From Eledone cirrhosa (Eukaryota): a stretch of 64,000 nt of DNA. Position numbers and translations under genes: made by a program. This document shows positions 12,672-61,328 of the stretch, in pieces; position 1 is the stretch's first letter, and each line of letters begins with the position of its first letter. The stretch lies in assembly GCA_964016885.1 (NCBI GenBank), contig OZ024742.1, forward strand, positions 286,502,001-286,566,000, read 5' to 3'. A model generated the notes under the pieces. The model searched no databases, was not told the origin of the DNA, and worked only from the letters and a program-made list of their open reading frames with translations.

Positions 12672-13050
12672 GCAAAAGTTCTATTTAAAATTGTTGGGAT
12701 ACAACAAGCAAATATTATTATAACTGATATAAAGCACTCGACAAATATTTGGAGTAGATATACGATATTAATAAATGGAAACTATATTTATAAAACCATA
12801 TTTATTTCATTATATATATTTCAAGGATACCAAGTTAAATCATGGTATGCCTTCATCAGACAAAATACAATATATAACAGTTTTACAAATAGATATTGAC
12901 GTACCCTTTCAAAAAGGTGAACGTTATTTTTGGAGGCCATCCGGATGTCTGATGAAGGCATACCATGATTTAACTTGGTATCCTTGAAATATATATAATG
13001 AAATAAATATGGTTTTATAAATATAGTTTCCATTTATTAATATTGTATAT
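12672..13050. mobile_element. (TA)n-embedded PLE-like/HHR element with 105-bp inverted arms (12758-12862 and 12946-13050)
   Basis: Near-perfect inverted repeat around an 83-bp spacer; related sequence at 24150-24230 and 61225-61360. Confidence 0.8.
12803..12867 (-). ncRNA. Type I hammerhead ribozyme motif
   Basis: Minus strand: TATTTTGT-CTGATGA-AGGCATACCA(loop)TGGTATCCTT-GAAA-TATATA-TA-ATGAAATA. Helix I is 8 bp (2 GU); helix III is the palindrome ATATATAT. Confidence 0.8.
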
Positions 13051-13397
13051 ATATATATATGCCTGTTTTCTGACTCGCTCATATATTCACACAGCTTATG
13101 CTGAAAGAATAACTATGTTGCTTGTGTTTATTTCCATCTTCGGTTAGCTTCCCCCTGCGTTGTTTACTTGTCTCACTCGCTTTACGCGTTTCTATTGTCC
13201 TAATAACTTATTTTAGTTATTATCGCTCCAACGTGAGGTATATGATTTTTAATGCGATGAAATATCCATGATCGTTTGGTAAATCACTGATGAGGGACTC
13301 ATTTTATAACATGTTATCCATGTGCAACCAGCAGTATTCTTCTCACCCATATTTTCATATATATATATATATATATATATATATATATATATATATA

Positions 13398-13543
13398 ATA
13401 AAGGAAATGTGGTAAGGAACCAGATGAACCAAAACGCACCAGAGTACTCAATACTTAGGGTAGTAGAGTGGGAAATAGGAAAAAGTATGACCCCGACGGC
13501 AGAGCTCAAGCCGTTTCGACCGGTCGGGGTCATACTTTTTCCT
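13398..13543. mobile_element. (TA)n-embedded fold-back element, family B (3' half of an HHR)
   Basis: GGAAAAAGTATGACCCCGAC and GTCGGGGTCATACTTTTTCC are inverted arms; minus strand reads GAAA-CGGC-TTGAGCTCT-GCCG-TC-GGGG. Confidence 0.7.
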
Positions 13544-13665
13544 ATATATATATATATATACATATATTTATATACATATATTTATATACATATATATACA
13601 GACGCATATACGTACATATATATATATATATACAAATATGCATATATGCATATATATATATACAT

Positions 13666-14675
13666 AACCTCGTGCCGCGTCTTCGTTAGCAGGGTTCTTC
13701 AAAACACAACAGAACCCTCTGTGTTCAGAGAACGTGAGGCCGCCTGTGAGACGTGGGGCCGGCTGGGACTTAGCCCAGTAGACGTCCCTCCCCCTTCTCC
13801 CTCTGTTGACGTCAAGTCACCCCAACGTACTTGGGATGCCATCCAGTGCAGCCTGGCCTCAGACAGGCTCACGCGCCAGCTCGACCAGCACCGCCTTGCT
13901 TGTTTTCGTGCGGTCTCCAAACCCCACAGTGGTGCCTGGCTCCATGCCCTGCCCTCCTTCTCCACTGGCAGCTAGACAACCATAGCCTGCGAATCGGCGT
14001 TTCCCTGAGGCTCGGCCTCCGGATCTGCCAGCCACACCAATGTCGCTACGGTTCCACCGTGGACTCTTTCGGCCTCCACCCGCTTTCCTGTCTCCACAGT
14101 GCCGGCCGCATTCCACGCCATGCTGCCCTCAACGAGGTCATTAAGCATGGCTTGGACGCTGCAGGCTTCCCTTCCCAGCTCGAGCCAGTGGGGCTAGATC
14201 GAGGGGACGGCAAAGGGCCAGATGGCATGACCATCTTCCCGTTCCGCGGTGGCAAACCCCTCGTCTGGGATGCCACTTGCACCGACACTTTCTTTTGCCG
14301 CAACCTGGTGCAGTCTGCGACTGACCCAGGTTCTGCTGCACGTCGGGCTGAGGGGGCCAAACTCCTCAAATTCCGGTCGCTCTCCAACAGGTTTGCGGTC
14401 GTTCCCCTGGCAGTGGAAACTTCTGGTGTCCTCGGCCCCAGTGCTACCTCCTAACTCACCACCATAGGCACTGAGCTGGCTAGCCGCAGGTGTGAGCCCC
14501 GCGAGTTGGAGTGGCTTTCCCAGCGCGTCTCCCTTGCCGTCCACCGGGGAAACGCCTTCTCCATTCTGTCTGCCGGGGCTCTGGGTGGTCCCCATCGCGT
14601 ACCAATACATTAGTTAAATACCATTCTTTCATCTGATACAACACAATAAAGACTAAAGTGATTAAAAAAAAAAAA
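13666..14675 (+). mobile_element. 5'-truncated CRE-clade non-LTR retrotransposon (Zn knuckle plus restriction-like endonuclease), decayed
   Basis: [59 protein letters not shown]. Frameshift near 13970, stop at 14452, AATAAA at 14645, poly(A) at 14664-14675. Confidence 0.88.
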
Positions 14676-15558
14676 TAATTATATCTCCTACATATGATAG
14701 TGCTCAGCCTTTTGATATTTAATAGGAACTCTGCGTACAAAATAAAATCAAAACATATATATACATATATATCATTTTTATCATATATATATATATATAT
14801 ATATACATACATATGTATATATAATCGCTATATGATATATATATATATATATATATATATATATATATATATATATATATGTGTGTGTGCATATGTATGT
14901 ATATGTATATATGTTTGAATGCATATGTGTGTGTATGGCGGATGCTTAATGAGACACATGTTATATAGACATAGCCAGTTTTATATTGCGTATATACACG
15001 TTGAAGGGTTATCAAAACGATGACGTCATAGACATAATTACGCCAAGATAACTGTACACTCTCTCAAGCCTGGAATCTCAATCTCCTATATTCTCATAAT
15101 TGTAGCGAGACAAAGATTCTGTTAAGTTTAAACATATCCAACAGACATTTTAGGAAATGTTCCTCGGTTAATATTTCGCATTCCTCTTATCGAAATTCAC
15201 ACGATATAATTTTGAAATCTCTTCTTTTTTTTTCTTTTTTTTCTGATTCATTTTTTTTCTTTTTTCTTCCTTTTTTAAACATTCTTTAAACATTTTTTTA
15301 GGATATATTTTTAAAGCTTTTTCTTATATTTTTCTTGTTTTTAATTTCACTTAGTCACAGGATGAAGGGCAATAGTGTGACCTTTGCAGGTTTTCTTTTC
15401 CAAATATGTGAGGTTGAGGTTGAGGTGAGAGGGTTAATGGGGTTCATAGCAATTGCATCATACCAGACATAGATTGGTATGTGCGATGTACTTGCGTGGC
15501 CGAATAACCACAATTCGCTATATATATATATATATATATATATATATATATATATATA

Positions 15559-58338: not shown

Positions 58339-58784
58339 AGTTGAATTTCCTTGTTGAATTAAATAAAATGTTTATATATATGTATATATATGTATCTATT
58401 TATATAGAGTATTATTATATTATATATATAACTGTGTACATATATATATATATAATATATATGGAGAGATGTAGTAAATTATCTCGTTGACAGACAAGAT
58501 GTGTGGTTGTAGTTGTAAGTCACTCACAGACACAAGTATTTGATTTCAAGTAATCAAATATACATATATATCAATATATATCTTTCTTTATGACTGTAGT
58601 TGATTGTTTGTTGATAATGAAGAAATTTTGGAAAATATAAAAGATTATCCGAGGTAATGGAATATAATATAATATAATAATAATAGAATGTTAACAGCCA
58701 AGTCTAGAGCAGAACTGAAATAAGTTGTTTCTCGTTTGCCTGGCAGTAAGAGTAATGTTCAACGTTCGCACATACAGAACATAA

Positions 58785-58835
58785 ATTGAATTGGACCAAT
58801 AAGGCTGCGTTGGCAAAGATTCAATTGACGTCTGT
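58785..58835 (-). promoter_or_regulatory. Possible promoter elements of the 203-aa gene (CCAAT and CRE-like TGACGTC)
   Basis: GACCAAT at ~58794-58800 and TTGACGTC at ~58825, ~450-500 bp upstream of the ATG; short motifs that could be chance. Confidence 0.3.
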
Positions 58836-60983
58836 CTGACAACAATTTAGAACATTCCAGATTAGGGGGGTGAAGGTTGCAACTGTTAATAACCTCTTCT
58901 AGATTATTTTCTTGTCTAATAAAGTAATAAATTCGCAGAAAAATTATAGAAGACCTCCCAAGAATGCTAAAAAATATTTTTTAAAGATTTAAAACTAACT
59001 TTTCTATTAATATATTAAAAGTATGGCTGGTATTTTTCCATAAAAGACTAAGTTGTTTCCTCCATATCAAAAGTGAACTCGTCTCGCTAATAAATATTCA
59101 TGAGTTTCATGGCTTCGCGCGAATATTTCCCTCCCATTACAATCACAGGTCACATGACTATGTATATTAATGGAAATCAGCACAATGGACGAGTCTATTT
59201 TTCTATAGGGGTGCGTGGTTATGTTAGAACTAATGTTCACGGATGTTACTAAAAAACCTTTAAAATTTTCGAAAAATAAACGATTAGTTCCTTTTTATAC
59301 AGCTTTAAGAAATAATAAACCTTTATTTGTCATGTAAAATTGAAAAGATAAAAATGTCATATAACAAGCTATGTCCCCTAGAGATGTACAGTTCTGTTGA
59401 CCGCCATCACTTACTTCAATGGAAAAATATACTAGTAGAATTGACCAATGAAAATGCCTGTTTAGAGTTGCGTACTACGATTAACGTGAACACTATTGTT
59501 GGCAAAAATTTAGGGTGAACTATTAATGCCCCCCCACCCAAAACCTTAGAATATCAATAAAATATAATCTACTACATATATATATACATACATACATACA
59601 TATATATATATATACATATATATATATATATACATGTGTGTATATATGTATAAAATAGTAATTACGAATATGTAGTATATATTTATATACATGTGTGTAT
59701 GTAAACACAACTGTGTGTATATACACCATGTTGTATATGACAGTGTTTGTTTGTTTACATGCGTGCGTAGTTACTAAAAGCCCACTCAACTTTTATTTTT
59801 ATTCCCTATATGCGTGGTATATATATATGTGTATGTATATGTATATATGTGTGTGTATGTATATGTTTATATATGTATATAAATGTATATATACATACAT
59901 ATACATATACATACACATATATACATATGAATGCACACACATAGATATACACTTGTATACACATATACACATATGTATAAATATATATATATATATATAT
60001 ATATATATATATATATATATATATATATATATATATATAAGTATGTATATATATATGTATATATTTGTATAACATTTGCATGTATATGTATGTTTAATAT
60101 AAGTATATATATATGTGTATCTATCTATCTATCTATCTATCTATCTATCTATCTATCTATCTATCTATCTATATCTATATATATGTCTATATATATATAT
60201 ATATATATATATATATGTCTATATATATATATATATATATATATATATATATATGTATGTCTATATATATATATATATATATGTCTATATATATATATAT
60301 ATATATATATATATATATATATATATATATGTCTATATATATATATATATATATATATATATATATATATATGTCTATATATATATATATATATATATAT
60401 ATATATATATATATATATGTCTATATATATATATATATATGTCTATATATATATATAAATATATATATATATATATATATATATATATATATATATGTCT
60501 ATATATATATATATATATATATACGGATTGGACACTACCGTAAACTCTTGGTAGATTTATCTACATATATATATATATTTATATATATGATTGTTGAATT
60601 GTATTCCGTATTAAAACTGAAAAAAAATAAAACGATTAAAGTTGTGATTTAATATATCAATAATAAAGGTAAATCAATTTATGGAAAAATTACTCTTACA
60701 GGACTAGTCCTGTATCTTAGGATTAACTAATATCGATTTCAATATACGCATATATATATATATATATATATATATATATATATATATATATATATATATA
60801 TATATATATATATATATATATATATATATATATATATATATATATATATATATATATAACCACAGATGTAATGTGGTTCATTGATTACTCAATGAATATA
60901 GTTTTACAATAGATTAAAAGCACTCTACCAATACTGGAATTGAACCATCAAGACCGTAGAGGTATGTCATACATCAGTTCATG

Positions 60984-61049
60984 TATTTTATCTGACGAGG
61001 ACGTACTGAAAAAACAGCACAGTACCTTCAAAATATATATAATAAAATA
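60984..61049 (+). ncRNA. Hammerhead motif with a G12-to-A core substitution (probably inactive)
   Basis: TATTTTAT-CTGACGA-GGACGTACTG(loop)CAGTACCTTC-AAAA-TATATA-TA-ATAAAATA; perfect 8-bp helix I. Confidence 0.72.
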
Positions 61050-61262
61050 TATATTTTGATTATGTGAATGTCTTCATTTATTAATATTCTGAATAATATA
61101 TATATATATATATATATATATATATATATATATATATATATGTATATATATATATATATATATATATATATATATGTATATATATATATATATATATATA
61201 TATATATACATACATATATACAATATATTAATAAATGGAAACTATATTTATAAAACCATAAT

Positions 61263-61328
61263 TATTTTATTATATATATTTCAAGGGCGACCAAGGTAAA
61301 TTATGGTGCGCTTTCATCAGATAAAATA
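61263..61328 (-). ncRNA. Type I hammerhead motif (family of 12803-12867)
   Basis: TATTTTAT-CTGATGA-AAGCGCACCA(loop)TGGTCGCCCTT-GAAA-TATATA-TA-ATAAAATA. Confidence 0.8.

Follow-up and report, generated by a model that had tools for sequence, protein, structure and literature searches.

Candidate type I hammerhead ribozymes with a UA-repeat helix III in a Penelope-like retroelement of Eledone cirrhosa

How can a hammerhead ribozyme work when its helix III and cleavage site consist of a short run of UA, and why do such motifs lie beside TA microsatellites? The question is raised by a 64,000-nucleotide stretch of the Eledone cirrhosa genome (GenBank assembly GCA_964016885.1, contig OZ024742.1, positions 286,502,001 to 286,566,000), referred to here as the window. 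Their host is a Penelope-like retroelement (PLE), whose 3' portion they occupy. The motifs are very probably type I hammerheads (HHR) of a PLE inserted in (TA)n, located 48-139 nt from the 3' ends of its copies, with a predicted cleavage site and a likely dimeric mode of action.

The window contains four hammerhead motifs, listed here with the scores of R1, a covariance model made afterwards.

12801..12869, minus strand: hammerhead copy A, complete (pattern and covariance model R1, 84.1 bits, E 3.6e-18)
12942..13007, plus strand: hammerhead copy B (pattern; 61.0 bits, with four non-pairs in helix I)
60982..61051, plus strand: hammerhead copy C (75.9 bits)
61261..61330, minus strand: hammerhead copy D, complete (77.7 bits)

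The pattern CTGANGAN{10,40}RAAATATATA matches these four sites in the window and nothing in 100 shuffles, and R1 recovers the same four loci and none further. The original prediction had named copies A, C and D. All three are correct and, with sequences as described and no match in the shuffles, are real as hammerhead-like motifs; copy B had been overlooked. In copies A, C and D, a U-rich 8-nt strand is followed by a CUGAUGA-type box, a stem-loop and a GAAA-type box, and then by UAUAUAUA and, as the complement of the U-rich strand, an A-rich strand of 8 nt. The conserved core (C3 U4 G5 A6 N7 G8 A9 / G12 A13 A14) is intact in three of the four window copies. Position 17, where any nucleotide other than G is allowed (H17), is A in all four. 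The open end of the hammerhead lies at helix I, which makes these motifs type I.

Copy A has the layout UAUUUUGU-CUGAUGA-AGGC AUACCA..UGGUAU CCUU-GAAA-UAUAUAUA-AUGAAAUA, with a CUGAUGA/GAA core and a helix I of 8 bp (six Watson-Crick and two G.U pairs). Its helix III is composed of the pairs A15.1-U16.1 and U15.2-A16.2 and the loop AUAU, and cleavage is predicted after A17, at 12811|12810. Copy B lies opposite copy A, head to head, and has the same core, helix II and helix III. The 5' strand of its helix I is gone because the arm is 5'-truncated 3 nt ahead of C3; its predicted cleavage site is 12997|12998. The helix I of copy D (UAUUUUAU/AUAAAAUA) is entirely Watson-Crick, and its stem II is bulged, GC(G/C)ACCA/UGGU(c)GC. 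Copy C belongs to a subfamily distinct from that of copy A, with a stem II of GUACUG/CAGUAC. It has CUGACGA (60992) and AAAA for GAAA at 61029-61032, corresponding to U7C and G12A. The former falls at a position where change is tolerated; the latter is expected to inactivate a hammerhead, and copy C is likely inactive through it. Stem II differs between the three originally named loci yet still pairs (AUACCA/UGGUAU, ACCA/UGGU and GUACUG/CAGUAC), as had been stated.

Across the genome, exact patterns composed of an intact CUGAUGA, a gap of 20-45 nt, and GAAA followed by helix III and AU identified at least 46,970 hammerhead motifs with an intact core, in four helix III variants.

UAUAUAUA, UA centre: 20,556 genome copies by exact pattern
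UAUGUAUA, UG centre: 25,969 genome copies by exact pattern
UACGUAUA, CG centre: 324 genome copies, with stem II subfamilies of their own
UACAUAUA, CA centre, mismatched: 121 genome copies, scattered across subfamilies

Reversed-pattern controls gave 0 for each of the four variants. With 20,556 and 25,969 genome matches against no reversed controls and no match in the 100 shuffles, chance is excluded. These counts do not support the earlier view of (UA)4 as a constant of the family: UAUGUAUA is commoner (25,969 versus 20,556), and (UA)4 shares the family with it as the other major state. When helix III was left free and the downstream sequence fixed, 29,767 genome matches were obtained; the first 100 of these rows, read by eye, comprise 51 with UAUAUAUA, 38 with UAUGUAUA, one with (UA)5, one with UACGUAUA and nine others. 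The same 31-nt stem II is found with UA, UG and CG centres, and near-identical stems occur with CA. The 156-nt unit round copy A recurs at 97-100% identity (55 matches listed from 729 candidates). A few contigs of another organism are 90-99% like 12780-12914 and 12978-13049, mostly with the UG variant, and a related species probably carries this hammerhead family.

Within one molecule, helix III amounts to 2 bp (A-U and U-A) and a tetraloop. Between two molecules, 8 bp can form via AUAUAUAU, which is a self-complementary 8-mer. The duplex depends on the central step of the 8-mer: UA and CG give a perfect palindrome, UG keeps the duplex via two wobbles, and CA breaks it. The amplified centre states are UA and UG, and CA is at noise level. 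Dimer action is likely, because 2 bp alone compare with 8 bp between molecules, and because UA, UG and CG keep the duplex and CA is rare. This central-step pattern fits an intermolecular 8-bp helix and is not predicted by a monomer model. The ribozyme would cut after the A of the AUA triplet, probably as a dimer joined by AUAUAUAU. In a homodimer co-fold of copy C, the 8-mer pairs between the molecules (-27.6 versus 2 x -9.3 kcal/mol), a modelled result that is suggestive of an intermolecular helix III.

Such a design has precedents. For metazoan hammerheads of type I, the published account (PMC4209133) gives 1-2 bp in helix III, closed by a palindromic loop of 2-4 nt; they are described as acting as dimers and are found in both flanking repeats of PLEs. 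Judged from its sequence, the self-complementary helix III described here is this published dimer-type design in a new sequence variant. No description of a UA-repeat helix III was found in the literature searched or in File S2 of PMC8557442, which is not proof of its absence from print; in the supplement of that paper, GAAATATATA or GAAATATGTA matched within coding sequence only.

The pairing of the other two helices was followed in copies drawn from 58 distinct-sequence stretches from the genome matches, 30 loci of the 156-nt unit search and a few others. The first alignment, A1, holds 81 copies, being 101 distinct motif sequences minus 20. Those excluded were two nested false starts, one sequence without a helix I strand, one with a long insertion, one with (UA)5, and 15 in which helix III merges into a longer TA tract or which belong to other families. 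In A1, 92.3% of cells are paired versus 85.9% after shuffling, a level reached in 0 of 500 shuffles, and two-sided changes occupy 115 cells where 33.8 were expected. Slid registers gave 38-53% paired in A1 and 34-56% across analyses. The second alignment, A2 (144 hits, 110 distinct, other families included), is 91.8% paired versus 79.8% shuffled, with double changes in 17 of 19 pairs, among them all eight of helix I and all nine of helix II; being fitted by a model, it is biased towards the structure by construction. The A15.1-U16.1 pair is A-U in 109 of the 110 distinct copies of A2.

Helix II shows exchanges of G-C to A-U and of C-G to U-A at most positions. The variation of helix I in the main family is mostly G.U wobble, and the true double changes in this helix come from a second family. 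This second family keeps GAAA-(UA)n and has a helix I (ACUGC/GCAGU) and a helix II (GGUCAUAGCC...) that are both unrelated to those of the main family. Two parts of the original prediction are affected differently. The helix I differences between the window loci, which had been read as compensatory, are two one-sided wobble changes, A-U to G.U and U-A to U.G. The proposal that the fold was under selection is supported by the covariation of helices I and II, seen in sets of 81 to 110 distinct copies. In the second family (L093-L101, L108, L109 and L112), helix III is polymorphic in length, (UA)4 or (UA)8, with helix I still next to it, and by its sequence it behaves as a real microsatellite.

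The organisation of the host element is seen at locus L113, where same-strand hammerheads at 858-905 and 4534-4581 lie on either side of an open reading frame (ORF) at about 1102-3262 (tblastn, with frameshifts). The order of the full-length unit is hammerhead, about 190 nt, ORF, 1.3-1.5 kb and hammerhead, and the distance from hammerhead to hammerhead in L113 is 3,676 nt (~3.7 kb). L010 is a locus of the window subfamily; its ORF has the ATG 184 nt beyond the cleavage site and encodes a protein with IRWRAF and SDKT, read by eye. P0001, a 576-residue reading frame from L032, contains YRDD, a CNCRDRSKC linker (CxCX5C) and a C-terminal NYVGST..RYNNH. Its AlphaFold model (pLDDT 75.1) matches reverse transcriptases (RTs), with 138 PDB chains at E<=0.001 that include DRT2 RT (3.7e-08), TERT (3.9e-06) and LINE-1 ORF2p; the top matches are all RT-fold polymerases. 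The nearest Atlas clusters carry HTH_animal, RVT_1 and GIY-YIG, with GIY-YIG in 21-47% of members. At the sequence level, P0001 has a weak match to a retron RT (E 0.022). On the modelled structure, the ORF has a reverse-transcriptase fold, and its C-terminus is GIY-YIG-like by a motif seen by eye and a weak Pfam signal. PMC8557442 describes Hydra-clade PLEs as carrying hammerheads, inserting in (TA)n and having DKT for DKG, RW(K/R) and a CxCX5C linker. With its DKT, RW(K/R), CxCX5C and (TA)n insertion, the present element answers to this description as far as motifs read by eye can tell.

The position of the hammerhead relative to the 3' end of the element was taken from 127 copies. Motif-based classes replaced end calling by BLAST, which was confounded by TA tracts.

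short 3' end, on (TA)n and about 48 nt downstream of the cleavage site: 57 of 127 copies
long 3' end, on (TA)n and about 139 nt downstream of the cleavage site: 51 of 127 copies
run-on into the ORF: 2 of 127 copies
long form, no TA tract: 5 of 127 copies
end class unassigned: 12 of 127 copies, among which several are long forms altered by point changes

Ends adjoin at least three TA units in 108 of the 127 copies. The copies lie mostly in head-to-head, 5'-truncated pairs: counted by eye among the first 100 rows for the UA centre, pairs less than 5 kb apart comprise 18 in -/+ order, two in +/- order and one +/+ pair, the L113 unit. Head-to-head pairs combine one short and one long end in 23 of 28 cases, with no short/short or long/long pair, and the centre of each is a variable 5' truncation point. 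Together with the flanking repeats, this arrangement is the published PLE pattern: PLE insertions often include a 5'-truncated copy in inverted orientation, with a tail on one side (PMC8557442).

In the window, this pattern is found at the following positions.

12637..12671: (TA)n tract adjoining the long end (sequence)
12672..12945, minus strand: left arm of the first head-to-head insertion, a 5'-truncated retroelement 3' end with 99.2% identity to L010
12946..13045, plus strand: right arm of the first insertion, with its short end 48 nt beyond the cleavage site
13046..13061: (TA)n tract adjoining the short end (sequence)
60764..61099: second head-to-head insertion (sequence comparison)
61098..61220: long (TA)n tract (bounds approximate)
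61216..61346, minus strand: solo 5'-truncated copy with hammerhead D, 93% identity to the L113 unit

The left arm of the first insertion starts 87 nt upstream of C3 and finishes at the long end, 139 nt beyond the cleavage site, and it abuts the right arm with no spacer. The tracts at 12637-12671 and 13046-13061 would be the halves of one target microsatellite split by the insertion. The second insertion has a left arm (60764-60925, minus strand) that contains only the tail, downstream of the hammerhead, and a right arm (60925-61099, plus strand) that includes copy C and has its short end at (TA)n. The solo copy also has its short end towards a (TA)n tract, such that the tract at 61098-61220 is entered from opposite sides, tail to tail, by separate insertions with C and D. 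Tail-only fragments of the same element family, 24062-24117 (plus strand) and 24152-24235 (minus strand), converge on a TA tract elsewhere in the window. No hammerhead is present at 24062-24235, so the 5' truncation there fell downstream of the ribozyme. Another repeat (…GGCACAAGGCCAGCAAT..CAGTGCATTACTGGTAC…) adjoins the same TA tracts, at 12575-12636 in the window and in the flanks of L009, L012 and L048, and is apparently a separate element likewise tied to (TA)n. At L100 (398-566), a single case, the (TA)11 of the tail leads without a break to the GAAA of a hammerhead in the opposite orientation; one element may here have inserted into the TA run that forms helix III of another copy.

A mechanism can be proposed from these ends. 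Insertion would proceed by target-primed reverse transcription from two internal sites of the template. In the anole PLE studied in vitro, there are two internal RT start sites and both DNA strands are extended (PMC11167929). After that element, the template RNA would be one that is not cut at the 3' hammerhead, and cleavage would likely serve to process tandem or read-through transcripts. The full-length template has UAUAU where the short ends fall and UAUA where the long ends fall. Pairing of 3-5 nt with a TA-repeat primer could occur there, and could also arise by chance in AT-rich sequence. A more elaborate version of this scheme appears rather doubtful to us: the nicked (TA)n end would pair with the UA runs at +48 (UAUAU) and +139 (UAUA), one for each strand, and so give the short and the long end; the (UA)4 of helix III would be locked in the ribozyme dimer and almost never used; and the centre would have moved from CG to UG to UA under selection for the dimer.

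Several observations weigh against the interpretation as active, dimeric hammerheads of a Hydra-clade-like PLE. The central-step counts represent amplified lineages or copies and not independent events, and CpG decay could be an alternative source of UG and CA from CG. Helix III is invariant in A1 and A2 as fixed by the search pattern, which leaves the counts uninformative on this helix. Rfam hammerhead models were unmatched at the gathering score, and at E<=10 round the loci; the TA tracts gave spurious Rfam microRNA matches. Folding z-scores are only -1.3 to -1.8, the minimum-energy fold is a hammerhead in copy C only, and in copies A and D the minimum-energy partner of the helix I 5' strand is GAAAUAUA. 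For the protein, Pfam gave no match for P0001, and four ORFs or relatives were likewise nil at E<=0.01 or E<=10; among 23 relatives, GIY-YIG was found in four (best E 0.006, below usual thresholds) and RVT_1 in one. The 3.7 kb unit exceeds the length of under 3 kb given for the Hydra clade in PMC8557442, and membership here is by motifs read by eye. PLE hammerheads cleave poorly in vitro, according to PMC4209133, and in the anole PLE the uncleaved RNA is the template and cleavage is unneeded for insertion in vitro (PMC11167929).

The last points also bear on whether the motif is a decaying relic, kept through young copies and an active element, whose RNA does not cleave in vivo. The 97-100% identity among copies of the window subfamily, the minimum-energy folds of copies A and D that differ from the hammerhead, and the low activity and in vitro dispensability of PLE hammerheads (PMC4209133 and PMC11167929) are in keeping with this. 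Against it, helices I and II keep their pairing through double changes in many subfamilies and in unrelated families, and tens of thousands of copies retain an intact core. A relic is unlikely.

Less likely again, and in our view very improbable, is that the short head-to-head units are retrozyme-like non-autonomous elements living as small circular RNAs. Animal retrozymes do have type I hammerheads with a proposed origin in PLE flanking repeats, as set out in PMC7229834 and 10.64898/2026.07.22.740005, and short head-to-head pairs are very abundant here. Retrozymes, however, are direct tandem repeats of 170-400 nt, whereas 18 of the 21 close pairs in the first 100 rows are inverted, the single direct pair is the 3.7 kb full-length coding unit, and the pair centre is a variable 5' truncation point.

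The original prediction had further proposed that hammerhead cleavage leaves an RNA with the 3' end ...AUAUAUAUA, which would pair with (TA)n DNA at a nick and serve there as the primer for reverse transcription. Insertion into (TA)n is real, as the 108 of 127 ends on at least three TA units attest, and in L094, L095, L099 and L101 (minus strand) the core runs straight into a long TA tract with no helix I 3' strand. If priming took place at the cleaved ...UAUAUAUA, copies would stop at GAAA(UA)4 and enter the target tract. Tabulating element ends against the UA site, as had been suggested, placed them about 48 nt (57 of 127) or about 139 nt (51 of 127) beyond the cleavage site. Genome-wide, cores running directly into at least eight TA units number 117 (reversed control, 14), versus 46,525 in which the helix I 3' strand is present, and several of the 117 are second-family copies in which helix III is expanded but complete, for example (UA)8 followed by GCAGU. 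Over half of the family carries the commoner UAUGUAUA, whose sequence departs from a TA repeat. Hammerhead cleavage leaves a 2',3'-cyclic phosphate on the 3' end, and the cleaved end proposed as a primer would bear this group. The template of the anole PLE, moreover, is uncleaved RNA (PMC11167929). Priming by the cleaved end is thus so improbable that it can be set aside.

We give next to no credence to a miniature inverted-repeat (MITE) or foldback DNA transposon at 12.7-13.0 kb holding the motif by chance in 108-nt terminal inverted repeats: the arms 12755-12862 and 12946-13053 are 98% complementary and their hairpin draws an Rfam match to MIR9481 (46 bits; gathering score 130), but the arms of the insertion are of unequal length with no spacer between them, units with the RT-fold ORF have this same sequence as their 3' end, and one short and one long end occur in 23 of 28 pairs, as for PLE insertions (PMC8557442). 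The MIR9481 match itself, to a plant microRNA model on 12822-12988, is an artefact of the hairpin of two inverted arms of the head-to-head insertion and not a microRNA gene.

With a PLE that carries likely dimeric type I hammerheads as the preferred reading, the family can be placed among known systems. The metazoan PLE hammerheads of PMC4209133 are alike in their location in both flanking repeats, their short palindromic helix III with dimer action expected, their many copies per genome, and subfamilies rich in compensatory changes. They differ in that helix III here is all A-U (AUAUAUAU or AUAUGUAU), helix I is long (8 bp), and the 10.1-11.1 pair is A-U, G.U or G-C where theirs is a fixed G-C. 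Hydra-clade PLEs, as characterised in PMC8557442, share the C-terminal endonuclease (putative in the present element), the (TA)n insertion, the hammerhead near the 3' end, and DKT with CxCX5C; their cleavage nucleotide is A, U or C, a range that includes the A found here. In File S2 of the same paper, all 26 of 26 Hydra-clade rows have a stem III that starts with 'ac' (C15.2-G16.2), with 3-4 bp and a loop of 1-3 nt, and a UA repeat is in none.

The satellite or retrozyme hammerheads of newt and axolotl (PMC7229834) are likewise type I with a weak helix III of 1-2 bp and a palindromic tetraloop, and are efficient only as dimers. Their repeats, direct and in tandem, measure 330-350 bp and are expressed as circular RNAs, in contrast to the dispersed inverted pairs of a coding retroelement found here. 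The anole Poseidon element (PMC11167929) also has two alternative 3' ends downstream of the hammerhead, an uncleaved template and an AT-rich target, and its extension of both strands fits the head-to-head pairs described here. Its start sites are within the ORF and have no target homology, whereas both ends here are ahead of the ORF with a possible microhomology of 3-5 nt, and its tail is 30-40 nt versus about 91 nt here.

It is already published that PLEs carry hammerheads, that helix III in these is palindromic and that the Hydra clade prefers (TA)n, and this family is a further member of that kind. What it adds is scale and natural variation. The at least 46,970 intact cores are a large natural series, in which the UA, UG and CG centres with rare CA provide a ready mutant set for dimer-dependent cleavage. 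The two alternative 3' ends and the pairing of one short with one long end give clean statistics on where PLE reverse transcription starts on both strands, and the appealing idea that the cleavage site provides the primer at the target can be dropped as mistaken.

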